A stretch of DNA of 49,525 bases from the NCBI GenBank assembly GCA_000934665.2, contig JYFJ02002894.1, positions 1 through 49,525 of the forward strand, given 5' to 3'. Position 1 is the first letter of the stretch, and the number at the start of each line of letters is the position of its first letter. The position numbers and the translations under genes were made by a program. Positions 13,101 through 45,890 of this stretch are shown here, one piece after another. The notes under the pieces are model-generated. The model did not search any database. It was given only the letters and a program-made list of their open reading frames with translations, and was not told the DNA's origin. This DNA comes from Catajapyx aquilonaris. Lineage: Eukaryota.

Positions 13101-16100
13101 CACACATTCTGATTTGCACCAATTCTATGTGCAAATGAGAGATTTCTCCTCTGAAGAACTTTATTTCAATACAGCACGTCATTTTCAGATGTATGTTTCT
13201 GTGGTGGTTGAAACTTGTGATCAAGGCTTGTGCAAAGTAGTTTTGATGCAAATGTAATTGGTCTAGAGTGACATAACCATGAAAAAGACAGGCAAGAATT
13301 TAAAATATTATTTTAAAATGAAAAGAATTTCTCAGCTGCCTGTTGACAACCACTGTAACTAATAGTTAAAGAAGAGTTAGACTTTTTCTATTCGCGGGGC
13401 AACCGGCATGGCCCTGCATGCAGGGCCCGTGAAAAAGGAATAGTGGGGAATCGCTACACTCCCAATGTTAATTTTTCCAACTTCATAACTCGCGATCAGG
13501 TTAATCGATTTCAAATCGGAAACAAGATTTACACTCCGCTCATCCCAGTTACCAACTTTAGATGGATAAACAACAACTAGGGCCATTACCAGGGTCACTA
13601 TCCGGGGTCAAAGTTCAAAAAAGTGCCGTTACATCGACAAGGATACAGCCAAAATGGTGCATCGTAGAGGGTCATACAATGTGTCATTAGAACCACAATG
13701 TTCCCAGGTGGTGCCCTTCTTCCTACCATCTTTTTTTTTAAAAAAACTTTACTTATTGAGTTAGATAGTGTCAGTTTTCCTATTACGATGGTGTTGGTTC
13801 GTTTGCTCCCCTCATCCAAGGCTGTACTGGCCTAGGATCAGTTAGCCTCATGGTCCGCAGAGCATATGTCATCAGTTCTTTCTGTAGTAAGTGCATACCA
13901 ACATGTGCATTTGCTATGGCATTTGCGTTGTTCTGTCTGGCGTGTGCCATCCAGGATACATCAGAGTTCCTTTCAGCCAATTACATTCAGTTTAATACCT
14001 ACCCTCTTATCTCAAAAATGCCTCCCAGGTCATAAAAATTCGGCGGTAAAGTCTCAACACCATAGAATCAGCGTCGCAGCATCGAGAAGTAACTGTCACT
14101 ATGCCATATCTGACACTTCAGTGCCCTCGAAAAGCACGGTCACTGGGCATACTCCACTACAAGAAGAGTTTCTCTGTAACATCAATCAGGCCACTAATCA
14201 CCATTGCGAGGTTTGTGACCGCATGATGTACAAAAATGGGTCACAGGAGAATAATTGCTGTTACAAGTGCAATGCTACAAATGCTCGAAAATGTGGCAAA
14301 CGACTACCCGTATGACATCAAGTATATTCTGATTCCAAGGGTTGACGATCAAATTGGCCTGAGTCAACGGTGCTATAACAGCATCAGGTGCAAAAATCCT
14401 CGCATACCGCCTTGCTCAAAAAAATGGAGAGTACGTCCCCTACCCTCCCGATGTGCTTGACCTTTTGTCCGCGGTCAAAGTGAGACTTATCAGTCGTGTT
14501 AGCCCCTTCCTCAAGATATTCCATTTGAACAAGGGCAGGGGTCAGTTAGGTCTCAGGGGAGGTGTCATTCATTTCGCCCAGAATATTGAGGAGATCTACG
14601 AACAGCTGCCGACTGCAGACTCTGGAACCATTGTTGTGTCAGAGTCTGTGGAGAACGTGATCCAGTCTTCAATGTGCCAGTTGCACCCAGCTTTTCTGCA
14701 CGCTGCGTTCCTATGGCTGGTCGCAAACAACGATCTCAACAGTAATGTTACCATTGACGAGCTGCGTCTTCGCCGTGTACGAGTCGACGACATCCTGTTG
14801 ACACCTCAGATAATAAATGATAATAATGATAAAAATAATTAAATAAAACAGGCAGGTAAAACTGCCGAAAACTATTCTACCTCTGGGTCAGATCAAAAGT
14901 AAGAAACAAGTCCATTGGTTGGGGTTGGTCCGTCTCATGGGGATGGGTGAAATTCAATTGAATTTAAAATATTCGAGACTTGGGGTCTGGATTAGGCGAC
15001 CCCAAGTCTTGAATATTTTAAATCACAATTGAATTTCACCCATCCCCATGAGACGGACCAACCCCAACCAATAGACTTGTTTCTTACTTTTGATCTGACC
15101 CAGAGGAAGAATAGTTTCCAGCAGTTTTACATGCCTGCTTTATTTTTATAGATTGTTACATAACTAATGACTGTTGCTTTTTTGGCAGCTGTTGAGCGTG
15201 TTCACTGTGGCAACCGCCATATTTGATGTGTACTGCCTAGCAGAGGCTGCCCCTGGAAGTAAACACTATGGCTACTACATCATAAGCTTCGAGTTTGTTT
15301 ATGCTGGAAACCCACATGGTCAGTATTTACTCAGATGTTACAATAAGAATGTTGCCGCTAGCAGTTCATATGAATTTGTCAACTTAATGGCCCGTTTCCA
15401 AAGAAGCTTCAGCTTGAAAAAGTGAGCTCTGGAGCTCACCTTAGCCAGTGCTTCACAGCTAGCACCCTCAGACCGGTTTCCAAAGAAGCTTTGGCTTTCC
15501 AGCTCGTGCCAGCTTGTGAAAACCAAGATGGCGATCGCAATGGAGTGGAGGAGTTTGCTCTTTAGGCTCAATGACCTTGAGCCTAAAGAGCAAACTCCTC
15601 CACTCGTTTGAGGTTGCTAATCAGTCTGTCTCTCCTCGCTGCCTCCCCTGCATCGGCAGGGCCCTCTGCTCGAGCAGCTCCTTCCATGACCTTCGACAGG
15701 TCATCTTTTTTTCTCTCTCCTCTCTCTCCTTCCTCACTATGCCCTGGCCTCCCCACCCTGCGTCATCACCCCACCCCTAGCCACCTCCCCACCGAGATTG
15801 TCCCACGTGACCCCAGGAGCTGCTCCAGATTGGTCAGAAAGACACTCAAGCTCCAGCTTGAATATCGTCTCGTGCTCGATGTTCAAGGCAAGCTGAATAG
15901 GAGAGCTAAAATATCTACCCAGCGCTAGAAACGTGTTGCAGCTGGAGCTAGAGCGAGCGCCAAAGCGCACTTTTTCAAGCTGAAGCTTCTTTGGAAACGG
16001 GCCTTAAGCCTCCGTCTCTTGTTGTAAGGAAATTGTGCATGCATGAAAATGGGAAGTTATTTTAGTTGTTCGTGGACAGGGTTAAACCGTCCAATGTGCC

Positions 16101-23473: not shown

Positions 23474-26432
23474 TCAGTGAGTTTTGTACGATGCAAAAGG
23501 GTAGAAGTATTGAAGCCCCTGCAATTCTTCCTGCTGTGTAACGTCAGCCAGGGTTTGCAGATCTTCATCCTCATTAATGAGTTCATGCGCTGGTTCAGAT
23601 TCCCATGAATCCAATGAAGCTGAGTGAGATGGGTTGGGGAAATGAGCAAAATTTGGGAAGTTGTTTCCCAGTTCACGGGGAACCACTTCATTTCCACCCT
23701 GTGGCTGCCCCTTGGAAGGCCACCCTGGCAGATTTTCCTCATCCTCAGGGCAGATGGGCTGAGGACAGCAGTCAGGGTAGGGGCGACTCAGGTCAGAGAT
23801 CAGCCGGCAGGGGGGATCGACACCCACGGCCCCACATCTGCAAAAATTAATTAATTGCTTAATTAGATGGGATGCGTATTTGGGGGCTGTGTGAAGGTGT
23901 GTGGTTTTGCAAGTGAGAAGGCTGGATTGGCAAGGATGACTGGTGGGTGACCTAGCATATCTTGTAATTCTTGTGCTCGTCCTATCTTCACCTCCCGTGA
24001 AATTGAATGTTTCGTTACAAAACGTGTCCTATATCCTTACTTTTCAGGAAGGAATGGTGTCTTATTTTGTTAACATGCATGCACAATCCTTTTTGAATGC
24101 CACTCAGATTTCTGGCTGGTCCTCCCATTACACCATTTGATATCTCAATGTCAACAAATGAAGATGACAGTATAGAATAATTTGTCACTTGCTTATTTGC
24201 TGGTGGGGATACAGTAATATTAATGTCAGGACACCGGCTCGTAGGCATTCCAACGACTCGTGTAATTCACTGCCAAACTGAAGATTAGGTGACAGGAGCA
24301 AATGGAAATTAGAGCCCGTGAGATTTTTACTAATACTGATGTGAGCATAGATTAATAATAATTATTAATCTAAGCTCACATCAGCATTAGTAAAAATTAA
24401 TTATCGAAGGGTACCTATAGTGTAGTAAGCACTAATTGTAATTGAATGACCCAGTATGGAAAGGGCATAAGTCCACCTTTTGGTCAAAATGACTTTTTCG
24501 CGGAAGGATACTCTTCAGTATGGAGGGAATAAGTTCCAGTAGGAGAGGGAGCGAAACTCCCCACCCATATGCTATATTTGAGCATGTCAGAATTGCCTCC
24601 AGAATGGAAAAGGGGGACTTACACCTTTTCCATGCTGAAATTGCTGTTTCGGAATGAAAAGGCACTTAGTCCATCGTGTCATTATCCGGTAAATAGGCCT
24701 ACCTACATGTATTCAGGAAAATGTTGAAGTAAAGTGTTTGCCTATATCAATGAGTGTGTTATTTTGTGTTACTTATGTTATCATGTGACAGAACGGCACA
24801 GATTTTCTCATCCTGCCATCTTTCAGAATGGAAGGGACGTAAGTCCCGTCCCTTTAAATCGCTCTCACGCATCTGTCATGACGCGTTTTCCACCGAACTC
24901 TGCTCAACATGATGCCAATGTCGACTAAGATCAACATTCCCGCGAGTCCGACCACCTTGACGAATTTACAATGCCGCATTTCAGTTTTTTGTCTCCCCTG
25001 TAAAATTAGGTCTCATGGACTTATGCCCTTTCCATATTGGGTCATTCAATTAGTGCTTACTACACTATAGGTACCCATCAATGTACAGAGATCATCCTGC
25101 CTAAATAATGTGTTACGTCCTTTTTCTTCCACCACGCAACCAAAGCATGGTGTCAAGGTAATGCTGATAACCTGTCAATTATTTCTACATACTTGATAGG
25201 TATTTAACATCTTAAAGACGACCGAAGAGTGACCCATCGCCCCCTCGTTCTCGTGAACCAGAAAGTACAGTACTCACGTGGAATATCCAATAAAGCTTCC
25301 CTGGCAGGTAGCCTTCCCACAGGTTCCCCACTCCCAGCTCGATCCCACAGGAAAAGCCTTCTGGAGTTCAGGTTCCCAACATTGGCCGGGAAAGTCTGCA
25401 AAAAGAATAGAACGACACCATGAACTTCTATGAGTGACATGTGATAAACAGTCATTAATTTTCCGCAAGTTAAACTAGAGTGTTATAGATAATTTTAAGA
25501 GCACATTCCTATTCCTAAATAATTATAATGTTAGGTGTATGATTTGATAGTAACACGGGTCAGCTATACGCCAGCTCAGTGTATTGACCTTCACAGGAAA
25601 CAGGAACTTCTGGCTAACGCTGCCATGTACTGTACGTGTACATAAGCAATATTGGACACTACAATGCTGATTAAAGTTAATTTTCATCTAGTCTTGCAGT
25701 CCTTTGAAAACAAAATCTGACATTGTTATCGGGTAAATAGAACATCCCTGACAGTGTGACAGGCTATTAAAAAACCGTAACCATTCATCACATTGACAAG
25801 GAAGTGCGAACTGTCGTTTCATATTCATGCCAAACCAAAAGTGTTGATCACGTACTGCTGCTTGGGGGTGGCGAAGAAGGGGGGGGGGGGGGGGNGGGGG
25901 ACCTGTTGAACTCGTCCCACTTTCAGCACCTTTACAAGTCTCATCTTTCTTTTTTCTCATTGCAAATCTTGCTTCCAATCTTCGGATGGGCCGCTTCAGA
26001 CCTTGACCCACACTCTACTAAGGCTGTTTGTCTTATGTATCTTTGCCAGAATTTATTTATTACCTCTACCCTTACCATTCTTCCCTTCCTCCTTCTTTAT
26101 ACAAAAAAAAATACTCCAATCCCTTTAACCCAGTTAGCACATGTCAAGAGAAAATTAGGTTAGATATTTTTGGTCCGGTTCCATATTTATTTATAGCGGA
26201 ATGAATCAACCAAAATTTTCGCTGCTGAACACCCAAAATATGTACAGTACATCCAAGTGCATAGATTCAAATATTCTTAATTAGCATATTAAAAATTAGT
26301 ACCAATATCAATACAAACTGTTCTATGTGACAGTGTCCTACCTGGATGTCTCTTGGATGGTCCGATGGCAACCGCGGCCGAAGCAGCCTGGACCAAGGCA
26401 GCTCCCAAGAGCACCATCATCGAGGTCTTCAT
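23474..26432 (-). CDS. Secreted single-domain von Willebrand factor type C (SVWC, Vago-like) protein, 190 aa
   Basis: Exons 26432-26342 (signal peptide MKTSMMVLLGAALVQAASA), 25395-25278 and 23837-23474, all GT-AG and phase-compatible. Eight Cys in SVWC spacing: PGQCW...VGSSW..GTCGKATC...TCG...PPCRL..DLSRPYPDCCPQPICP. TATA box upstream and AATAAA at 23396-23391. Confidence 0.9.
24323..24397. repeat. 75-bp AT-rich palindrome
   Basis: atttttactaatactgatgtgagcatagattaataat-a-attattaatctaagctcacatcagcattagtaaaaat, with 2 mismatches. Confidence 0.8.
24409..25076. mobile_element. Non-autonomous TIR element with ~65-bp inverted repeats, in SVWC intron 2
   Basis: gggtacctatagtgtagtaagcactaattg...gaaagggcataagtcca versus tggacttatgccctttcc...caattagtgcttactacactataggtaccc. 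Confidence 0.7.
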
Positions 26433-31334: not shown

Positions 31335-34300
31335 ATGCATCATGGCCCCGGAGAAGGAGGGGGAGGGAAAAAAGCCGGAATCAAGTATAAACCATGGGGT
31401 CAGATAGAAGATAGGGATCCCTGCAAAAAATGGCTGCCGTACGTGTACGTGAGCATAGCATGGCTGGGGGTCTGTTCGTACATAGTGTACGGCTGCGTCG
31501 AGGTAGCACGGAGTCCGGACAGTATTGTAGTCAGGGACAAAAGAAGCGACTATAAGAAAAATGGCACGGAAGAAAGCGATGAAGAGGACGAGCACGGTAC
31601 GGTATATTAATTGGTTATGATTGCTAGTTGGGTTTTGGGGGAAGGTTAGTGCTGGATAATTATGTTGATCTATTATGATGGGTGGCCCTTAGTGCTGTAT
31701 TAACTTATGCACTTCATGTGTTCATTTGATTTATCGTATCTGTAATCAACTGTCATTCAAGGCCAGCTGTATGAACATATTTATAAGTAGGCTATATTGA
31801 AATATTTAAAAATACGGGGAGGTGAAGTGGCGCAGCGGTAATGCTCGCGCCCACGGATATGAAGGTCCCGGGTTCTATCCCCACCCGGGGTTCCCACCTT
31901 TATCCGTGCAGAGTTGGGCCATCTCTGGCTTCATTTCGGGTGGCAATTTCCGACAGACTAAGCCACCCGGGGAGCTCACAAAATGACCATTAGAGACATT
32001 GCACTTTGCACATCCCCTCCTACCTACCCTGGAGTCATTAATTAAGATCTTCTTAGACGGCTCCAATTTCCGATGGTGGTAATCCACCCCCCTAAAGGAT
32101 ATGGTAAATCCCAATGGGGTAATGCAAAAAAAAATACAGAAAAATTAAAAATAGACAAAATGGAGCTTTCTACCTTAATTTTTTGTTGATACAACCAGTC
32201 CTTAGGTGACATTTTAATGTGGATTATAGAGTGCGTCTCAATTTCATGATCCACTGGAACATTTGAACAACAATAACTTAGTGCATGGAGTAATAGCTTG
32301 GAATTAAAGCATATTTTTTCATGGAATCGGGGTCATAAAATGACCTATTTTTTTAGGATGATTCTGACTTGTTCAATTAAATGTGAGGTATCACAAGAAC
32401 TAACTTCCTTTTAACTATTTTTTTGTTATTTTGGATCCTCTTAATTTTTCTATCCTGCTGGGCCCTTGCTCCTAGCTGTTAGGACATTTCTTTGAAGTTT
32501 CAATAAGATTTTTTTTTTTGCACAAAGCTGCTTATTTTTAAGAATTTACTTTTCAGTCACTTTTAACCCCTTGGCTACCAGATCCAGGAGCTGAGATTCG
32601 TTTCTGTTCAACTTGCACGTACTCTGAAGATACGTACAGGATATTTTACAAATAATAACAGCTATACTTACACATCCATGCTGTACACTATGAATATGTT
32701 TGGAACAATTTTCCACTTCTAGAAGTCGCAAAAATTAATTTTCAAAAAGATCGCCGTAACAACTCGAATTTAAATTAAGACCGGCCTAATGTTAGGCTGA
32801 TTTAATTATGAAATACATTAAAATATGCGGAATAACAACCTTGAGAATCTTGCTATGACGAATATGCTGAAATCGCCGTACTTCGCGAGAATTAAATTAA
32901 TACTTACTGCGGCTTGCCTCCCACTTCGGAAGACTCCAAAATTGATTTAATTTTCGCAAAGTACGACAGTTTCAGCAGATTCATCATAGCAGGATTCTCA
33001 AAGTTGTTATTCCGTATACTTTAACGTATTTCATAATTAAATCCGCCAAACAGTTGGCCGGTAGTAATTTAATTTCGAGTTGTTACGCCGATCTTTTTGG
33101 AAATTAATTTTGCGACTTCTACAAGTGGAAAATTGTTCCAAACATATTCATAGTGTCCAGCATGAATGTGTAAGTATAGCTGTTATTATTTGTAAAAATA
33201 TCTTGTTCGTATCTTCAGAGTACGTGCAAGTTGAACACGAATCTCAGCGCCTAGATCTGGTAGCCTAGGGGTTAATGGCGACTGAAAATATTATATTAGG
33301 TCGAGGAAAATCCTTTATTGAAGCTCCCATGAAGGGTATTTCAAAATAATTGATTTATTACAACGAAACATGACAATCAGATCTAATTATTTATGTAACA
33401 GAAAGCTAAACAACAACATGCTAACCAGAGTGTGGAGTAAGTCTGACGCAACCATTCTGACAAGGAAGAGGTTGATATATTGCTAGATAGCTTGATGGTG
33501 TGCACTTATTCTGCAGCTGGAAAACTTCTCAAGTGTAATTTTTATTATGACTCATCATCGTCTGTCTCATTAATGTCTTATTGATCCCTCTTCTTTACAG
33601 CGCATGAAGCTCCTTACATGATAGCTTTCCTATTTATGAGTTTCTTGACGGGTGCGATAATCCGGACACTTCTCAAGTTGACCCACCTGTCTATCCCCTA
33701 TACGGTCATCCTCCTAGTGACAGGAGCCCTTTTTGGACTCATTTCGTCTCGGTCAGAGGAGCTCAAATCCTACACCGTTCTTGGGCGAGTCAATCCTCAT
33801 ATCATCCTCCACGCCTTCCTGCCAGTGCTCATCTTTGAATCTGCCTTCAGCATGGATGCACACACCTTCCTCCGATCCTTCATGCAGGTAACATTACTTA
33901 CCTTACAGAATAATCTTGACCCTTACCATTATCAAATAAGACCCTCATGATATGTGGCACACATGTAACATCAACAGGTGGTGATAGTCGCAGTTCCAGG
34001 CCTGCTGCTGGCGTCCCTCTTCACTGCATTTGTCACCATGCATGTCTTCTCCTACAAATGGGACTTTTTGACGGCCATGCTCTTTGGATCCATTGTGAGT
34101 GCAACGGACCCTGTGGCTGTTGTGGCCCTGCTGAAGGATCTTGGTGTCTCAGAGCAGCTGAGCATGCTGATCGAAGGGGAGTCTTTGCTTAATGATGGAG
34201 CAGCCATTGTTGTCTACAAGATCTTCTATAACCTCAAAGTTGGGAAGCTGAAGATTGGTAAGCTCTTACTGTATCTCAGTACATATGGTGCTGACGTAGC

Positions 34301-37300
34301 TTTTCTAGATTAGTGAGACACACACCTATTGCAATTGACCTCACTTGGAACATGTGAAAACACAATTTAATGCCCAACAGAGCGAAGGACCCGAAAAAAT
34401 GGTACCAGTGTATGAAAAAATATTGCCATTTAATACCTGTACAGTCGCAAGCATCATGGGATGGACTTGGGCAGTAAGTTGGAATGAGACTGCTAGGTAT
34501 GTCTCTGCCCCATTGTAAAAACATACTGTTGTATGACAAGAGTGCCTCAAGATTATGGGTTTTTCATGTGTTTTGAGCTCCTGCCCAAGTCAGTATCCAT
34601 CATTACGCACACAACTGTACATAGTATTGGTGTAAAAAATCTCGTATATATCATGATGGAATGTCCCTTCTGATAATATTGAAACTACTACTGCACATGT
34701 GGCTCACATAGTTTTAAAATAGCCATGTTTTATGGAGTTAGGCACTTGCTCCTATAGGGCATTCAATTATTATTCCTCCTGCCAGCATGATGCTGTCTAC
34801 TTAATTAAGATGAATAGTATCTCTCTATTCCTTGAGTGTGGCAAAATGGCAGTGGAAATCTTTTATAGGGGCAAGATAAAACTGATATGAATTATGAGAG
34901 TATTCTCAATGTTGATACTGTGCAGGATCAAAAACTGGCCTAATAAGATCAAATACATTATTTGGCATCAATATTTATTCAACATGGTAACTTTTGTGCA
35001 GAAAATACAAGGTGCTGGAAAACAAGTGGTAATACTTTTATGTTGCCACACTTCTGGCACCTCCTGTCTTTTAAGCTTCACTAGAATATAAAATGTACAT
35101 GCAAAATTAGCCAATATGCGAGGTGTAACAGGGAAATACTATAGCTTCTGGCACTAGTGTCTTTCTTGACTTTATCAGCAAGTTACTGTACAATCCACAT
35201 TACTTATGCAGTTTAATATAGTGATATGTGCATATTGCATGCGCCATGAGTCACAATGAGAACATTTCTAAAACTATTGGTGCATCAGCCTGTGTGCCCA
35301 GAAGGTAGGCTACTCATTCATGTACAAACTGAACTGGAGAATATACTGACAAGGGACATATCGTGGGTGATAATAACAAATCTGGATGAAACTTATGCTG
35401 AGGACAATATAATTATAACTTTTTCAAATTTGGGCTTCAGCATGAAATATTTCATTTTTGGTCCTTTATTAGCATATTCAGTTTCATCCAGATCCATTAT
35501 TATCACCTGCAATACATTCCTTGCGAGCATCTTATAAATTTTATCTGTCACATGGCCAATGGACCGGTACTTTTAGAAATGTTCTTAATCTGCCGATTGC
35601 AACAGAGCTAAATGAAAGGCAACAATTAGCAACCCTGATCCTAATATTGTCATGTTGATGAGTAGCATAATGTTCAGCCAAAACATTTATCCAGAAAGGC
35701 ATTGTAAGTGCCAAACTGGACATGGTAGTAAAAAAGCATCAGGGATGAGCATCAGGGTAAGGCTGACTGTGAGGTTGGCAGGCATTAATTTGGCTACATG
35801 GTAATATTTATGCAATTCTGCTCCAGTGACATTAGTTGCAACAAAAATAATGTTCAGTGTCATCATTACAATACCTAAATATACAGCATTATTAACTCAG
35901 ATGAGTGTTTCTCCCTTGCTACTAACATGAATGATTTACAAGTGGCATGTGGATCACAAGACTGTTAGCTACCACACAGACACAACTCAACCATCACTAC
36001 CTCAAGAATGCAAATCATACGAATATGAGCAAAGGGTTTCATTTGCTCCATAGTCTGAGATTTTCAATTCCTTTCTACCAACATTGGTTTACGACCAACC
36101 ACATTAGGGACTAGTGCATTTTAACATTCCGCTGTTTACACTTTCAGGGTGGTTATGGCTGTGGGAGTGTCATTTTCATTGGTTTACAGCCTTGTCCTGT
36201 GATCTTGCATACCATCTGTCAAAACTGCACCAATCCTTGTCAAATAATTCCACCTGAGTTCATATCTGCATGCTCCAATAATACAGCACTGACCGTGCAT
36301 ATTCAAACCCACATAATCAGTCCAGATCTAATGGCACTAGGGCCATTCTCAAACAGTAAATGTTTCATGACATTTTAATTTTTATTAACTATTGACTCAA
36401 CGATATTAATAACAATAAAAAAACATTATCTGATCATGAAACTTTTTCTTCGGTGTGAATGGCCCTACTGTCATTCATGAACACATCGCTGGAAATTGAT
36501 TGCATTGTGCATGTTAATGACCAGCACAACATACAATTTAATACACTCCTATAAAATATGATTTGTCAAAATTATCACCATATATTGGAATGTGCAAAAA
36601 TGATGTCATGTAACCCTCTCCTTGGCCTTGTCAAGTGCCTGCAGCACAGCTACAGTGTCTAGTTCCTTCTGAGATGCCTTTTCATTGTCCAGTGCTAGCT
36701 CGGCTGCTCTGGCAGCAAGAGCATGCAACACACGCACTCTATAGTCTACGCATGTAGCCACAGGGTTGCCTGTCAGCAGGAGTGAATCAAGGCATGGCAG
36801 TCTAGATAGATGGCGTGCCTCCTCAATGCCCTCCACCTTGTTGCATGACAAGTCAAGATGAACCAAGGAGTAGAGACGAGAGAGCCCAGACAGATCACTT
36901 AAATGATTTTGTGACAGATGCAAATGTGTCACATTCCCTAGTCTTGTATGCACATTCTCTGCAGTAGCAATAAGATTTGAAGACAGGTCAAGACGGCGTA
37001 ACGATGGCAAAGTGACTGCTGGTATCTCACACAGTTTGTTATTTGACAAGCAAAGTGTCCGGAGCAATGGCAATAATGTTATTGATGCATCTACATGTGA
37101 TAACTCATTCCGCGAAAAATCTGCAGATTCAACATGGGTCCAGGCATGTCTTACATCGTCACGATGTGTTGCATCACATGCCAATACCTCTGACAGCATT
37201 GTTAATTGGCAGTCTGTTGCCACAAGATCCACAACAGTGCGACGTGGTGAATCAGCTGAAGTTACCATGCTAGGGCGCGCATTGGAAAATTTCAAACGCC

Positions 37301-40300
37301 GCAATGACTTGAAAGCACTAAGGTCAAATGGAAGTGTGTTTGGAACAAGATTAGAAGTACCCACCAGCATGTTTGAACCAACAATATGCACTGATGCAAC
37401 ATTTGAAGCAAAGTCCAGCACATGTGCAAAGTCACACCGTCCATCTGCCGAGTCAAGGGGAGGGGCAGCCAGCTTGACCCTTTCCGATATTGCAAATAGC
37501 TGCAGTGGTGACAGCTCAGGAGTACCATCTGGGGGTGAGTCAAACAAACTGGCAGCCATATCCCGCAGAAGGAACAGGGCTTCATAGTGGTGCATGTGGA
37601 GGAAGCGGGCCAGCACAGGTGGAAGCAAGGGTGCCAGGCAGAGTAGTGAGACAACCTGGCTCAGGTAGGAGTCAAGCTGCTCCCTGCGTTTGGCTACAAA
37701 TCGTGCAGAGCGGTTCCCAATCATCTTCTTTGGTGGCAGCAGCTCTCGAGGAAGTGCATGGCTCTGCACCAGGGAAGCGTGCATGGTGGCAAAGTTGCGA
37801 TAGCGGCGTGAAACAGTCCAGGTGGCTGATCCTGGGGACGAGACTCCTGAAGCACATTCTGGGCTAACCCACACCCGAATTTGGTAAAGTGTGGCACCTC
37901 CATTCTCAGGTGACTCAGATGTTGACTCGATGTGGGTGCGGAGGGAGTTGGCACCATGCAACTCTGGTTGGAAGCATGCCATCTGTGCAGTGACCTGTCT
38001 GAAATAGGGAAAATAATTTACTCATACCGCAATGAGCTACCTTATGTTCTAACAAGGAGAGTGAGGTGCAAGGTTCTAGTTGAAGTAACCCATCTGTTTG
38101 CTGAATATTCAAGTCACTTGCCCTTCAGCTACAGTCAATTCCAACACGTTACATTTGATGTGCCACTGAGTTTGCCCTACAAAGGTGCCCTTTCACACAG
38201 GTGCTTTTCATATGGGAGAATGTCCGTGATAATACTGTGACGAGAGTACTTCTAAATGATTGATACTGTCAGCAGGGTTAATTCCTGCCATCTACTTTTG
38301 AGGCTTGGCCATTCAACATCAACTTTTTGCAATGACAATAACATATCAACCACATTTACCGTTTGCAGTTAAAAACTCCATATATGAACGTGTCAGCCTA
38401 ATGGTCCAACAAATTTTCACCTCAATGAAATTAGACACGTGTAATGACTGAAATGCTAACTCAAGAACTGGAGGGCTGCCAGCTGTCCCCACTCTCTGCA
38501 GACCTGCGTATTGACGCAAGAGATTTATGCTTGTTGTCAATACCCCTAGTTGCCAATACACCAAGCAACTTTGCGTCATCTGGACCCCTACTTTACATTA
38601 CAAATACACCGTCACGTGCACGTCAAGGACGTTTACCAGGAGCTGTCTGGTCGTCTGCAAAATCGGAATCGTCCTACACTCGTGACCATATGTCATCCAA
38701 ATCTGGCCCTTCTTCTCAGGATGCCCAGCTCTCTGTAAATGGGGTGCGCTGGCCCCCGTCGAAAGACAGCGTACTATACGTGGTGCACCGGCAAGGAAGA
38801 GCAGGATTGTAGCGGAGGAGGAGCCAGAAGCAACGCCACAAGGAAGTGGAGTGGGCGCGGCCATGTTGGTTCGACAGGGGGCAGCAGGGGACAGATGGGA
38901 GGTGTGACGTCATCAAGAGTGGGCTGTTCAAACTGTTTCTTTGGCTTGCGATTCATGTTTAATTTATTTTTATCTAAACCAATAGTATTTATTACTGCCT
39001 AGACCACGGTCTCATAATGAGCTGTGGGTGGAGAGAGTGGGGTACATATGGAGTAAATCAAACGTCACACAGATCGAAAACGGAGAATTGCAACACGTTG
39101 CCTGATCAACGTCAACAAAGGCGATATATTTTGCATGCGTCGTATCGATGCTTTTCTGCCTTTTCCCCTCCTGCGGCCAAGGATAACCTCGGAGGTCAAG
39201 TCCAATGCTATAAACACCTTCCCCGTTAAAAACCACCCCTAATGATCCCCCCGGGGTATATGCCGAGGCCTCCGCATTGATTTGCATCGGGAACGTACAG
39301 ACATACGTTAGATATACATACCGTATGTATAAGATACCGTTATTCTTCAGGTCGTGGGCTCGAGGTCAGCAGTTAACTAATAATAATAGTCGTATTTGCC
39401 TTTGATTACAGACTGGAGTCTTCTGCGTATATCGGCGCAGATAGTGATTGGGGGCCCGTTGTTTGGCTTGTTGATGGGCAAGGCTTCAACCATCTTCCTG
39501 GCGCGGATATTTAATGATGCTACGACTGAGATCACCATCACATTGGTCTCGGCTTATTTCACATTTTATGTGGGAGAAGAGGTGCTGAGTAAGTACATAA
39601 TATCATAGAGATGTGGTTGAGGCCAGGTAGCCAATTACTTGCTTATCCTTTCACGTTGGTAATCTGTGCAATATTAGTCGATATATAGCCTCTGACAAAA
39701 TGTGTATTGTACTTTTCCGAAAGATGTGTCGGGCGTGCTGGCTGTGGTGGTGCTCGGAGTGGTGGTGAGTGCAGAGAGGACCAGCATTAGCCCAGAGGTG
39801 GAGAACCTCTTGCACCACTTCTGGGAGATGCTTGCCTATTTGTGCAACACGGTCATCTTTCTGCTTGTGGGAATCGTCATCACGGAGAGTGCTGCCAGCA
39901 ACATTCGTGAGCAAGACTGGTTCTACATCTTGGTGCTGTACATCTCCTGCAATATTATCCGGTTCGTCATGCTACTCATGCTGTCTCCAATCCTAACTCG
40001 GATAGGATATGGTCTGCCATGGCAGAACGCTGTGGTGGTGGTCTGGGGAGGGCTTCGAGGCGCTGTTGGATTGGCGTTGGCGCTTCTAGTCTCGCAGGAC
40101 GAACAGCTAGGGAAAGACGAGAATATAGGACCAAAGGTATGGCTTTTTTGAACGCTGCCTACTTAAGAACACCATCTCAACTCAACCAATAATCCGGTGT
40201 TTTGACAGATACTGCTCCACACAGCTGGGCTGGTGACCATGACGCTCCTCCTAAATGCTACCACCATGAACTCTTTGCTGGACATCCTGGGTATGTCAGA

Positions 40301-41698
40301 TATTTCGATGGGCCGCCGACTGGACATGTCAAACGCTGTGCGACATCTTCTTGACACCAAGGCTAGGTAAATAGACTCGAATTTATTGTTTACGCATTTC
40401 GCACAAGATAACAGAATGTGCCCATCCCATTGATTCTGTTAGGGCCACAAGCATGCTGAAAATGGACCGATTTCTGGCGGATGCCCGATGGTCTTTTGTG
40501 GACAAGGCCACCCTTATTGAGGATCCCTATAATGATTCAGACGTATGTACGTGCGTAAAGTGCGTGGTGTTCACCTCCCTTTTCACGAGAGAACCAAAGC
40601 GTTCATATTGTCTTTTTTGTCATTGGACCTTAGGGTATTTTAGACCAGGACGAGGATTACTACCTGTCAGTCCGGTGCACCAAGTGTCCAAATTGCAATG
40701 CCACCATTGCTTACGAGCCGTCACCTAAGGAACAAAAGGATATCGTTAACGAAGCGTGTCTTCGCATCTTGAAGGCTGTCAAGGTCTGAACACCATTATT
40801 TTGGCTATACTGTATTATAGATTCCTTTTACTGCTTGGGGAACTAAAATGGTTGAACATTGCTACTCAGATATCGTATTGGCGTCAGTATGAACACGGGA
40901 TGCTGTCGGAGCAGGCTGTGCGCATCCTGACGACGGCAGCATCCTTGGCGGAGGACCAGGAGGGTATCCTGATGGATGTGCAATCGCTGAAGAAGCAGTG
41001 GGACGTCCGTGGGATCATACCTCTAGCCAGGCGATACTTGGAACGCGCTGTTCGACGGGATGCTAGCCCACCGGAATTCGTGCCACCTACGGACCCGTGC
41101 GGACATACCACTACATGCACCTGCATCGAGGTGTGCCCTTGCGAATCCAGCCGAAACATCACCGGGACCATGAGGTCCATGTTCTGGAGCTGGAGGATGT
41201 GTGCATACCGGTTGGTCATCAGGCCATGGTTTGAGTTCTTCATATACTTGGTCATCCTGGCCAATCTGATCTACGCCATTTCCATTCTCATGCTTGAGCC
41301 AGATTATGGAACCACGATGGGAATTCTGATTGACCTGGGACACTCTTTGTTCATGACCATATACGTGGTGGAAGTCATTGTTAAGGTATGTCTAGTATTG
41401 TTGCAGATGCAGATTTTGTTCGCAGTCAGGCCAGAAGTGTTTATCATGAACTGGCATATAGACCTGGGTGTAACTAATGATGGTTGTTTTGTAGGTAATG
41501 GCCTTTGGGTTTCGCCAGTATATCAGCAGCCACTGGAACAAGCTAGATTTAATAGTGACCTTCCTAGCGGTCGTGGACCTAGTTATGGAATTGCTGGAAG
41601 CGGCGGAAACCAGAAATGCTCCAGCCGCAAAGTTGATCAAAGTCATGACACTCTTTCGCATGCTGCGAATTGTCCGCGCGCTGAGACTTATTCGGGTG

Positions 41699-41772
<74 letters not shown>

Positions 41773-44470
41773 CCTAAGACAACGGACACTATGTTCATAG
41801 CGTTAATTGTTTTATCCAGCCCACGCTGCCTAAGGTGGTGACTTTCTTAAATGCCCGTGTGAACGACCGTCTATTCCTGGGCTACGACGTTGGCAAGGGC
41901 TTCATTGTCGGCCATGAAGAGGTGATCAAGTACCTTCCTCACATGGTCGACAACAAGCTGACTCGGGAAAAAATGAAGGTGCGTATGGACCACCAACGCC
42001 TGGATGTGATAAAGTCGATGGGCTTGCTCCAGAGGCAGCATCCAGGGATAGCTATTGCTGTCAAGACGAGGCAGTCCACTAGAGCGGTTATTAACAACAT
42101 GAGGCAGACCCTGATTGAAATGAGAGGAGGTGGGCTAATAGGGGAGAAAGAGTTTCACAAGCTTCTCTCTATCCTCGAGGCTAAGATCAAGAAACTCTCA
42201 TCGATGCCCTCGTCCATTATGCCACCACCTGCGGAGACAATGCTCAGGCGAGTGTTATCTTACTCCAAGATATAAGATATAAAAAATAAATAAACATCCT
42301 ATACTAATGAAGAAGGGCTACGACATTAATACTTAATATTTTGCAGACAGATATCGTGGTTAAGCGGCGACGAAGACATGGCGGATTTCATCGTAGAAAA
42401 AGCCGAGCTGATGCAATTCGACTACGGAAATATGATCGTGCATGCCAACACACGCAGCACAGGCATCCTCCTGATTGTGTCCGGAATGGTCCGGGTGGCC
42501 TATACTCCGTCGAACGATACCATCCAGGATCTCATAACTAAGGGTGCTCTACCCAACGCGGATATCATAACAGGAAATCTGGACGAAGAACAGGAGGACT
42601 TCTTAAGCTCCGGCAGCCTGCTCGGAGAGTTGGCCCTCTTGAGCGATGCTCTGTGTGCCAACACCGTCACCTGCGAGACAGCCGTACAGGCCTATTACGT
42701 ACCTCTGCTGCACATGAGAGGGGGCTTTACAAAATTCTCCGACACAGCTCAGGGATTGAGGACTCGCATTTGGAAGTCAGTGGCACTCAGGGTGGCCGCC
42801 GTCATCCTCACCAACGTACCCGCCTATCAGGTGCGGTGCGGAGAAAGTCATCATTTAATACTGTACTTTGGGTTGGTGTTGACTTCTGTACTCTTAATCA
42901 TGTATATTTGCAGTCGTGGCCTCAGGATAAGATCAAAATGCACCTGGAGAGGTCATTCTTAATGAACATCGACCCCGGGCAAGCGCTGCAGGTGACCGAC
43001 ATGCTAGAAGACTTGATGCTGATCAACGGCAGGCTAATGAACTCCCACACCCGGGAGATATACTGCGCCCCCATGTACATACCACGTACCGTGCAAAAAC
43101 TGACTTTACCTCCTGTAAGTCGAGGTTTTTAAGCACAATGTATGATATCAATCCTCACTTCACACATCAGAGTTTGTCACTTTTGCGTCCTCTCTGACGT
43201 GAGATGAAGCTAGGGAATATGATGAGGAGACTATATGAGATAATTATGTTCTTAAGGAACACATGCATTTTGGATGGTCTAATGGCGTAAAACAGACTCT
43301 GAACCTTCTTTCATGTTTCTTTATTTCAGGCTGGGGAAGATTCAGAAAGACCGGTGCCGATGAAGCTGTTGGTCGTTCCTGCTCCAGATGTGGATATCGG
43401 TTACGATGGTACCGTCATACAAGTTGAAGCCAAGCTGTCTACCTGCCTTCTTCATTCCCATTCCAATAGAATGTCTCGAATGACCGTGAAGAGCAAGGCA
43501 AAAATGGTAGGTGATTCACATAGGAGGAACTCGTTGTTAACCAGAATGCGGTTCAGCAGAAGTATGGTCGAACCGTCTAATGAGGACACTTTTTAGTTTT
43601 AGTTTTACATGCCCAAAGTAGGTCTGAATTAACTTATAGGCCTAGGTATGCGTTAATAATAAAATGCAATATGATATACCCTCCTCCCAATTTACGCGTT
43701 TTAATGCTATACTATGTGTGATTGAAAAGTCAGTGTGCACATCGAACATCCATGAGTGATTCACCTTTGTGTGACACTAAGTGCTGGAAATGGTCATCAT
43801 GGACACCTAATATAAAATGCTGTTATTTGCAGCTTCTACTCTGTAGCTATTAATCCGTGACAATAGAATGTATCCTTTAACATTGCATCAATAAATAGCC
43901 ACAGCATTGGTCCAAAAATAAATGACATTAGATGGTCTTTTGAGAGAATTTGTGGTGTCCGACTGAGTAGGTTTCGCTGTAATTCATGACTTCTTGTGAG
44001 TCGACTGGATCTAGTGCTTTGGGAGTCACTGAGGGGCACCAGCATTTCGATGTGGTGCACCAACCTTTCAAGTATCTCAAGAAACTTCAAGCCTGGCATT
44101 TCGAAAACTGGAAACATCTGGCTTCTAGTGGGAACATCTTCTTCTGATGGGGGACTGAAACATGTCCCATAATGCTCATTCAATAGGTTGCAATTTCCAG
44201 TCCCTTTAATTTCTTACAAAGGTAAGCTCACTGAACGTTCCCTAGTGCACACTGACCTTTTCGATCTCCCGGTACCTCACTGAACCGTATTTTTGTCCTT
44301 GTCTTTTGCAGTCAAAGAGTAAAAAGCATTCGATCGGCAAGTTCTTTAGCGGCCGATTTTCTGACGTTAGTGAGAAGTGGTCACGAGAACTGGCAGCAAC
44401 ATCTAATCAGCGAACTACTAGGGAAGAAGATGTAGAAGTCGAAGTTCCCTCAGATCTGAAGAAAGGTTAA
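31335..44470 (+). CDS. SLC9C1: SLC9C (sperm-type) voltage-gated Na+/H+ exchanger with NHE domain, voltage sensor and CNBD, about 1330 aa
   Basis: Exons 31335-31596, 33601-33887, 33978-34257, 39412-39588, 39724-40136, 40209-40366, 40443-40542, 40634-40783, 40870-41385, 41495-41695, 41820-42247, 42347-42830, 42914-43114, 43330-43506 and 44312-44470 join in one open frame of 3993 nt. Motifs: FLPVLIFESAF, SATDPVAVVALL, IEGESLLNDG, WGGLRGAVGLALAL, ISYWRQYEHGML, S4 FRMLRIVRALRLIR, LGYDVGKGF, and CNBD GEL..L......TVTCET. The first and last exons are less certain. Confidence 0.93.
31816..32030 (+). mobile_element. tRNA-derived SINE, family A, 3'-truncated copy
   Basis: GTGGCGCAGCGGTAA A-box and GGTTCTATCC B-box-like motif. 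The body aligns with 4741-4965 (cccacggat..aaggtcccgggttc, cagactaa.ccacccggggag.tcac, gacattgcac). Confidence 0.82.
32567..33271. mobile_element. piggyBac-type fold-back MITE in SLC9C intron 1
   Basis: TTAA-CCCCTTGGCTACCAGATC ... GATCTGGTAGCCTAGGGG-TTAA, with ~335-bp complementary arms. Confidence 0.85.
35255..35588. mobile_element. Old degenerate palindromic MITE-like element
   Basis: gagaacatttctaaaa versus ttttagaaatgttct; gtgataataa...tctggatgaaact versus agtttcatccaga...ttattatcac. Confidence 0.5.
36606..37982 (-). CDS. NISCH: Nischarin-like PX domain plus leucine-rich repeat protein (458 aa), intronless CDS, nested antisense in SLC9C intron 3
   Basis: PX motifs WTVSRRYRNF and LLPPKKMIGN...AKRREQLDSYL; nischarin-type LQLFAISERVKL, DFAHVLDF, VGTSNL..NTLPFDLSAFKSL; LRRs (LDLSSN, LHLSQN, LDLSCN); GNPV....DYR and LDNEKASQKELDTVAVLQAL. 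The MACF start resembles arthropod homologs. Confidence 0.93.
   Translation of the reverse strand: MACFQPELHGANSLRTHIESTSESPENGGATLYQIRVWVSPECASGVSSPGSATWTVSRRYRNFATMHASLVQSHALPRELLPPKKMIGNRSARFVAKRREQLDSYLSQVVSLLCLAPLLPPVLARFLHMHHYEALFLLRDMAASLFDSPPDGTPELSPLQLFAISERVKLAAPPLDSADGRCDFAHVLDFASNVASVHIVGSNMLVGTSNLVPNTLPFDLSAFKSLRRLKFSNARPSMVTSADSPRRTVVDLVATDCQLTMLSEVLACDATHRDDVRHAWTHVESADFSRNELSHVDASITLLPLLRTLCLSNNKLCEIPAVTLPSLRRLDLSSNLIATAENVHTRLGNVTHLHLSQNHLSDLSGLSRLYSLVHLDLSCNKVEGIEEARHLSRLPCLDSLLLTGNPVATCVDYRVRVLHALAARAAELALDNEKASQKELDTVAVLQALDKAKERVT
38637..38870 (-). other. Probable first exon of the nischarin-like gene
   Basis: GC-rich segment with AACATGGCCG (YY1/Kozak-like) at ~38860-38867, donor CTG|gtaaac at 38636, matching acceptor tttccctatttcag at 37999, and a TGACGTCA site at 38905-38912. 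Confidence 0.55.
41699..41772. repeat. (ATT)n microsatellite in an SLC9C intron
   Basis: Directly visible, starting just after the donor at 41696. Confidence 0.97.
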
Positions 44471-45603
44471 ACATCCTGAGGCCATTAATACCTGCTGGCT
44501 GTCGGACTGATGTATGATGCTGTGCTTGGTTGGACGGCAGCGATGTTGAGAAGATTATGTGGCTCATGTGACCTTTCAGTTGACACTGAACAACTTTTTC
44601 ACATCCATTATTTTCTCGTGTTCATTTAATAAATCTCGAACTATTTATGCTGACCATTTTCATTTACCCCATCCTACTAATAAAGCTGTCAGGGTTATTT
44701 ATGTTCATTTATGGTCCTGACAGACAGGTTGCACCAGCAGATGTGGCACATTCCGAATCTGAGATTTTACTGAATCCCACGCTCGTAAAACAGCCCGTAA
44801 CAACCTCGCCATAATAGACTCTTAGTAATATTACATAACACTTTTAGGTATAAATTACGTACAGTACGTTAATGAACTGCATGCTACAACTGATGACACT
44901 GACACATAAAGAATATTATGCATTATGCAATGCGTCGCGTCAGAGTCTATATCCTCGTCTGGCCTATATGGACAAGTGGCGGTTGATGGTTTTATAAACT
45001 GTTCTAAATTGAAACGTGACCGAAGTAATGAATTCAAGTGCGATAATTACGCGGTGTATCCTGCGCGGAGATCTTGCCAAATTGCAATCGATAATTCAGT
45101 TGAGCCCCCAGTTTGCTAATGGGGTCAGTAATGTTGAGTGCACTCTTATGTTTGGACTCTCACGCTGATTATACAACCTTTCCTATAGGAATGTTTGATC
45201 CATTATTTTCAAGTATAGGTGTATAGAGTTTCTATAGTAGAAGTGCTACAGCTGCAGGATAGTTAGAGCTGACCTAGATATATAGGCTATTCAGGAGATG
45301 TTAGAATGTGACGCATGCGTGCCATCAAGTAGAATACATCATGTAAAGTTTTACATTCCATTAGGATATAACCAGGTTAGTCATTATGCAACCTTCCAGG
45401 TTGTTGTATACCTGCACAATGTAAAATTGGTCCCACGAGGTCGGAGGAAGAAAATTGCATAGTCAGGGACAGGCTACATTTCCTGCATTGCATTTTAATG
45501 ATGATGATGATGGAGCATTCAGGCCATGCGAACATATGCGTACTGCTGGCTGATATATCATCTTGATGTAATTATTAACCATTAAAAATGACATTGGGAT
45601 GTA

Positions 45604-45890
45604 CTCTCTAAAAAAATAGTTAAAAAACTCAAGTTGGGTTCTTTTTAACTCTTTTAACCTTGAAAGTGGTCATTACCAAAAATGAGTTATAATAACTCTT
45701 TCGCTGGAGTTAAAACAACTCTTTCAGTTCATTTCATCCTCCGAAAGAGTTATTCATTAACTCTTTCGGAGGATGAAATGAACTGAAAGAGTTGTTTTAA
45801 CTCCAGCGAAAGAGTTATTATAACTCATTTTTGGTAATGACCACTTTCAAGGTTTAAAAGAGTTAATTTAACTCTTATTTTTTTAGAGAG
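45604..45890. mobile_element. Palindromic AT-rich MITE
   Basis: TA-CTCTCTAAAAAAATA ... TATTTTTTTAGAGAG-TA. Inner ~95-bp arms form an essentially perfect hairpin centred at ~45755. Confidence 0.8.

Follow-up and report, generated by a model that had tools for sequence, protein, structure and literature searches.

The question raised by the window (the whole 49,525-nucleotide stretch that was analysed, contig JYFJ02002894.1 of Catajapyx aquilonaris) is whether its SLC9C (sNHE) gene encodes an exchanger that has lost its response to cyclic AMP (cAMP). A sequence-only reading had placed a cysteine codon where the cyclic-nucleotide-binding domain (CNBD) should carry its cAMP-binding arginine, and had proposed a voltage-gated, cAMP-insensitive exchanger. 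The cysteine is real and transcribed, and the product is probably (probability about 0.63) a working, voltage-gated, cAMP-insensitive sperm exchanger. Coordinates are collected in Table 1.

The cysteine and the protein around it

The TGT codon of Cys1094 lies in frame inside an open reading frame (42330-42962). GELALLSDALCAN of the window was aligned without gaps opposite GEMGVLTKKPRN of sea-urchin SLC9C1 from the Protein Data Bank (PDB; exon E 2e-20). In this alignment Cys1094 occupies the column of sea-urchin Arg1053 (chain residue 1026 with an offset of 27), so that the codon does replace the cAMP arginine as first claimed; the sea-urchin cassette given in that claim also matched the PDB sequence. 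Misalignment of the cassette was ruled out, the distance from the glutamate to the column being 9 in 133 of the 135 homologs counted below.

The codon was checked in sequencing runs. Three DNA runs, all of one sample that is possibly the source of the assembly itself, contained zero alternative letters. Run X5, taken from a second sample in a different study, gives a spliced contig that spans the codon with 0 differences at a depth of 6 and joins 42573-42827 to 42911 over a GT..AG gap. Searches of the genome with two exons each returned this locus alone: the gene is single-copy, and a second, arginine-bearing copy was ruled out.

One chain carries exchanger, voltage sensor and CNBD, as in the definition of SLC9C (sNHE) given in PMC6660944, and the protein was grouped with named SLC9C proteins by PDB alignment, full-length matches, tree and structure match. 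Its domains, from the exchanger through the voltage sensor and CNBD to a beta-rich tail, follow the order of sea-urchin SLC9C1 (PDB 8OTQ, 8PD2, 8U6Z and others). The exon 3 residues were matched without gaps to sea-urchin T208, D209, E233, S234, N237 and D238 (the last two forming the ND motif), and Arg415 and Arg447 to R399 and R431, so that 8 of the 8 checked transport residues are kept. Exon 10 matched SLC9C1 and Cav/Nav channels in their S3-S4 region. The intact ND motif and arginine-rich S4 reported earlier were both confirmed by alignment, which supports an SLC9C gene with intact exchanger and voltage sensor.

The CNBD was modelled from a 62-row alignment with a predicted local distance difference test score (pLDDT) of 96 (41 for the single-sequence fold), and its best structural match was sea-urchin SLC9C1 (template modelling score, TM, 0.77). 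The ribose-binding Gly-Glu pair is present (sea-urchin G1043 and E1044), R1097 is kept and conservative hydrophobic residues stand at four places of the pocket. Gln is found at sea-urchin F1032, and Ala in place of N1054. The phosphate-binding arginine, nine residues past the glutamate, is not there. An alternative arginine was looked for, and the cassette loop has neither Arg nor Lys, unlike the sea-urchin cassette, which has two Lys besides the Arg. The window protein also differs from the sea-urchin one by a longer, arthropod-type strand 4-5 loop. The PKA/PKG-type cassettes of the same genome retain the arginine at an equal distance from Gly-Glu.

In the sea-urchin structure R1053 is the phosphate ligand, listed with the other pocket residues, and the R1097 side chain contacts the nucleotide (PMC10620091). 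The R1053Q mutant has an unchanged half-activation voltage (V1/2) without cAMP, and its cAMP shift is gone (-93.4 vs -93.9 mV), in gating currents and in exchange alike (PMC6052114); the earlier statement that the arginine is needed for cAMP modulation is correct on this evidence. CNBDs without the phosphate arginine are described as cyclic-nucleotide-insensitive (PMC10620091). A trypanosome PKA-R mutant with a window-like cassette opening and Thr for Arg was not activated up to 5 mM cAMP (PMC10959531, Table 2). By analogy, the window protein can be regarded as a natural counterpart of R1053Q.

Table 1. Positions of the SLC9C gene, its domains and key residues, and of a CatSper gene elsewhere in the genome
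Feature	Position	Strand	Basis
SLC9C (sNHE) gene, 15 exons, 1330 codons	31335..44470	+	GT-AG introns, homology
SLC9C exons 1-5	31335-31596, 33601-33887, 33978-34257, 39412-39588, 39724-40136	+	gene model
SLC9C exons 6-10	40209-40366, 40443-40542, 40634-40783, 40870-41385, 41495-41695	+	gene model
SLC9C exons 11-15	41820-42251, 42351-42830, 42914-43114, 43330-43506, 44312-44470	+	gene model
Exon 3, cation-binding core: Thr226-Asp227, Glu251-Ser252, ND motif Asn255-Asp256 (34191-34196)	33978..34257	+	gap-free alignment
Exon 5, exchanger helices with Arg415 and Arg447	39724..40136	+	Pfam Na_H_Exchanger, E 6e-21
S4, six basic residues K830, R836, R839, R842, R845, R848	41639..41695	+	alignment, channel matches
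Exon 12, CNBD (480 bases)	42351..42830	+	Pfam cNMP_binding, E 2.7e-8
Phosphate-binding cassette: Gly1084-Glu1085 kept, Asp1091, no Arg/Lys in loop	42624..42662	+	alignment
TGT, Cys1094, column of sea-urchin Arg1053	42654..42656	+	reading of the open frame, PDB alignment, contigs, gene model
C-helix Arg1139, equivalent to sea-urchin R1097, kept	42789..42791	+	alignment
CatSper-beta C-terminal exons (CATSPERB_C), three, collinear	G000:C1074:39197-40311	-	profile match in the same genome

Arginine loss across the family

The homolog set comprised 141 proteins (50%-identity representatives). Six were dropped, P0003 and P0130 as poor matches and P0083, P0113, P0127 and P0135 for want of clean cassette coverage, and 135 were counted. 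Names were available for 30 looked-up proteins and for Blattella, found in the relative search. The column holds Arg in 42/135 and another residue in 93/135 (Tyr 44, Met 10, Ser 9, Cys 6, Thr 5, others 19), 17 different residues being found among the Arg-less homologs. Arg is present in Orchesella, Centruroides, Patella, Tubulanus, Branchiostoma and Ciona, and Tyr in Blattella, Timema, Bacillus, Lygus, Cimex, Pectinophora and one Limulus cluster. Ser is found in Allacma, Trp in Folsomia and Seison, Cys in the tick Haemaphysalis, Thr in Latimeria, and Met in a snake, in a bat and in the SLC9C1 CNBD of PDB 9YDF. As judged from this column, the missing arginine is the majority state of the sampled SLC9C proteins, and the loss in the window is one of many, arisen several times in the family and not unique. 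The rarity implied by the sequence-only reading did not hold.

Two residues ahead of this column, an Arg is found in 40 of the 44 Tyr rows, 13 of the 49 other Arg-less rows and 6 of the 42 Arg rows. In the winged-insect-type rows this earlier residue could be a compensating phosphate ligand; the SLC9C2 Arg of such a position, two residues earlier in the present gap-free alignment, is treated as the conserved one in PMC10049371. Because many Arg-less rows carry it, reading all 93 as cAMP-blind calls for caution. A loop without any basic residue is found in 18/93 Arg-less rows and likewise in the window, which would make the window a cleaner case of loss because no basic residue is left there. 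The ribose-binding Gly is kept in 91/93 and the Glu in 83/93 of the Arg-less homologs.

Transport residues were scored in homologs of at least 1000 residues (n=53), 44 of which were complete at these positions (9 left out), the core being defined as D209, E233, N237, D238, R399 and R431. It is intact in 8/8 Arg-bearing full-length rows, and among Arg-less ones lost in 32/36 and kept in 4/36 (P0017, the snake P0087, Seison P0125 and P0132); because the rows share ancestry, the Fisher value of 3e-6 cannot be taken as a valid test. The window protein is a fifth Arg-less case with an intact core and alone among the five has all six S4 charges, by a count that uses the window's own S4 columns and favours it by construction. 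This distribution suggests that the cAMP site was lost before the transport site in the family. What is less common is the combination of a cassette without basic residue and an intact transport core.

The springtail SLC9C proteins (Orchesella P0008, Allacma P0018, Folsomia P0024, and P0017) are the nearest group or adjoin it in the tree; the column reads Arg, Ser, Trp and Asn over the four, against Cys in the window. P0017 shares the state of the window protein (core intact, 5/6 S4 charges, cassette without basic residue). The winged-insect proteins ('sodium/hydrogen exchanger 10-like') share with the window the missing column Arg and the long strand 4-5 loop, but their column holds Tyr and no complete Tyr row keeps the transport core. 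Mammalian SLC9C1 (PDB 9YDF; bat P0105) is Arg-less as in the window, but its ND motif is replaced and its S4 charges are reduced (PMC6052114). Unconserved residues of the voltage-sensing domain and CNBD in mammals are noted in a review (PMC10573352).

A tree was built from 25 rows and 1192 columns (LG+F+G4, search stopped at 200 s, cassette columns kept in). The ten winged-insect-type rows formed a clade with the window outside (Shimodaira-Hasegawa-like approximate likelihood ratio test, SH-aLRT, 100). In a quick tree of 98 rows the window was placed at an open fork. Eight fixed placements were then compared. Both placements inside the winged-insect Tyr clade were rejected (p < 1e-40), as were two others near P0033 and one on the chelicerate side; the three left standing make the gene sister to the springtails (p 0.77), to the Tyr clade (0.37) or to the two together (0.09). 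The gene is thus not a member of the winged-insect Tyr type, being neither nested there nor Tyr in the column, and by these placements adjoins the springtails or sits at the insect base. Together with the nischarin-like gene described below, the placements point to a hexapod outside the winged insects. A single change separates TGT from CGT, and likewise from TAT, the codon type of the winged-insect Tyr; the Cys would thus be either a separate loss or a retained Arg-to-Tyr intermediate, and the data favour neither. The CGT-to-TGT transition proposed at first is therefore one step away as stated, but is not the only route.

From the lost arginine to a probable cAMP-insensitive exchanger

The sole SLC9C of this animal most likely acts in the sperm flagellum, as expected from its family. 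Hyperpolarisation would move the intact S4 and release the intact electroneutral Na+/H+ exchanger, and alkalinisation could then open CatSper, a CatSper-beta gene being found in this genome when CatSper was searched for as earlier suggested. The CNBD is predicted still to fold and to couple structurally. A cassette that has Cys for the phosphate Arg and is free of basic residues would bind cAMP too weakly to shift the voltage range.

In sea urchin, alkalinisation by the exchanger stimulates soluble adenylyl cyclase (sAC), with cAMP in turn acting back on the exchanger (PMC12867704). The Cys would cut the feedback arm only, and the exchanger could still drive sAC or CatSper. sAC is expected in this genome because it was found in every animal having CatSper or sNHE (PMC6660944). 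It was not found, in searches that were weak and made without an sAC protein query, so that its absence is not established. The Guanylate_cyc profile gave 62 genome matches; catalytic motifs were read in 30 loci and 4 further stretches, and each one read was, by its motifs, of the membrane-cyclase or the guanylyl-cyclase type. AAA_16 gave 14 matches, 13 with a P-loop and none sAC-like by eye. Three patterns built from sAC motifs gave 2, 0 and 69 matches; of the 69, 46 were read and none was sAC-like, while the remaining 23 consisted of two repeated strings, 22 copies in all, and a single match with a stop. The genome search for CatSper-gamma gave no match, which is uninformative.

Several points weigh against a working, cAMP-insensitive exchanger. 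No functional data for arthropod SLC9C were found in the literature. RNA-type support is confined to the 3' part of the gene. No close relative was found in which the Cys might prove to be fixed in the lineage (best CNBD identity 45%, among representatives); relative searches gave one match among longer proteins (Blattella, 40%) and none among short proteins. Given the core losses among Arg-less homologs, the gene may be heading to a non-transport role. Finally, with Gly1084, Glu1085 and Arg1139 kept, weak binding at high cAMP is possible.

The last point leads to an unlikely alternative, in which a weakened modulation of the exchanger by cAMP or cGMP persists through the Gly-Glu pair, backbone amides and Arg1139. 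These residues and the hydrophobic ones of the pocket are indeed kept, and the equivalent of Arg1139 touches the nucleotide in sea urchin. Yet R1053Q also keeps Gly-Glu and R1097 and shows no shift at 1 mM cAMP (PMC6052114), and the window loop, besides lacking a basic residue, carries an Asp.

It is rather improbable that the pocket is retained for a ligand that has no cyclic phosphate, for instance a nucleoside as in the trypanosome PKA-R, which shares with the window the CNB fold and a polar residue in place of the phosphate Arg. The persistence of the ribose-binding pair in most Arg-less homologs would fit such a ligand. The trypanosome PKA-R mutant with the window-like cassette opening still responded to inosine, at 28 uM (PMC10959531, Table 2). 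However, the Glu that confers nucleoside selectivity and fills the phosphate site in the trypanosome protein, two residues past the cassette Glu, is Ala in the window. Gly-Glu may also persist for folding, and 17 residue types in one column look more like a relaxation of constraint than like a newly shared specificity.

Doubtful, too, is the view that the Cys marks early decay and that the protein is now mainly a scaffold, as suspected for mammalian SLC9C1. It draws on the transport residues lost in 32/36 Arg-less against 0/8 Arg-bearing full-length homologs, which are related and non-independent. Against it, the full transport core and S4 are kept in the window protein, whose identity to Arg-bearing invertebrate SLC9C is 42-43%, while that to winged-insect proteins is at most 33% over the full length (40% for the C-terminal part of Timema).

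A redox switch at Cys1094, an option left open by the sequence-only reading, found no evidence in its support and is very unlikely: Cys does recur in the column in 6 other homologs, but it is one base change from both Arg (CGY) and Tyr (TAY), and the sole other Cys of the exon, six residues on, is ancestral (41/42 Arg rows) and, being six residues along the strand, an improbable disulfide partner. An assembly error or rare allele is barely credible: the letters are identical in the three DNA runs and the second-sample spliced contig, which contradicts an error, even though contigs drop rare variants, so that a polymorphism may exist, and two samples cover the codon.

The voltage-gated, cAMP-insensitive exchanger is thus retained from the sequence-only reading as far as the SLC9C assignment, the intact core and S4 and the loss of the R1053Q residue are concerned; its rarity, CGT-to-TGT as the sole route and redox sensitivity are not. 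Within the literature covered, cAMP modulation has been shown in sea-urchin SLC9C alone, yet it is often extended family-wide. By the column, the required Arg is missing from most sampled SLC9C proteins, mammalian SLC9C1 included, and most Arg-less ones have also lost transport residues and so are not assayable as exchangers. A protein with exchanger and voltage sensor intact but the Arg missing would offer a direct test for any ligand response of the CNBD, and for sperm alkalinisation without cAMP feedback. The substitution alone is ordinary and unsurprising; the protein is useful as a test case. As a tentative and rather unlikely extension, Arg-less SLC9C CNBDs might keep their pocket for a different messenger, the window gene being the readable case that may preserve the Cys step from Arg to Tyr in a family losing the cAMP site first and transport later.

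PMC10602139, PMC10620092 and PMC13218627 contributed nothing on the residue at the Arg1053 column, and among the papers listed by the literature search there was none on an arthropod SLC9C CNBD or on 9YDF. Arg-less orthologs may already be shown in Extended Data Fig. 6a of PMC10620091 or in the additional files of PMC6660944. No published description of such an Arg-less, transport-intact SLC9C was found; the protein counts as a variant within a known family.

Gene structure and other features of the window

All 14 introns of the SLC9C model are GT-AG and its sole stop is terminal. The open frame of about 1330 codons claimed earlier was obtained in length, but only once the 14 introns are removed. 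Contigs of RNA type support the joins 42830/42914 and 43506/44312; the other joins, domain-to-domain ones included, are predicted from GT-AG signals and from homology over residues 92-1281, and exon 1 and the exon 11/12 border are likewise predictions. For intron 11 (42247-42351) two in-frame splices can be drawn, one from GT 42252 to the acceptor at 42350, the other from a GC donor at 42248 to the acceptor at 42346. The best full-length match was P0033 (43% identity over residues 92-1281). A pseudogene was ruled out, the gene being open, spliced and conserved.

In exon 9, an in-frame segment of 93 bases (41097-41189, + strand) encodes a 31-residue Cys-rich insertion ahead of S1, which sea-urchin SLC9C1 lacks and which is missing from 8/8 displayed homologs. 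It is flanked by GT and AG, and its removal gives the homolog spacing; its GC content is exon-like (0.57, against 0.16-0.44 in the 14 introns). It may represent an intron, either new or retained, or else a genuine insertion. Most of intron 10 is occupied by an (ATT)25 microsatellite (41699-41772). A short Cys cluster lies in a helical linker (exon 40634-40783, + strand, model residues 574-580). Its two-Cys core recurs in most long homologs, degenerate ones included; the cluster could, as a guess, be a metal site.

The 5.2-kb third intron holds, antisense, a nischarin-like gene with PX and leucine-rich repeat (LRR) domains (36606-38021, - strand) in one long open frame, 43-44% identical to insects and crustaceans alike. 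A von Willebrand factor type C single-domain match (exon 23474-24028, - strand) fell just below the Pfam cut-off. A DUF6570 match (14363-14842, + strand) presumably belongs to a piece of a mobile element. A long inverted repeat, resembling a miniature inverted-repeat transposable element (MITE), was seen by eye at 45590-45890.

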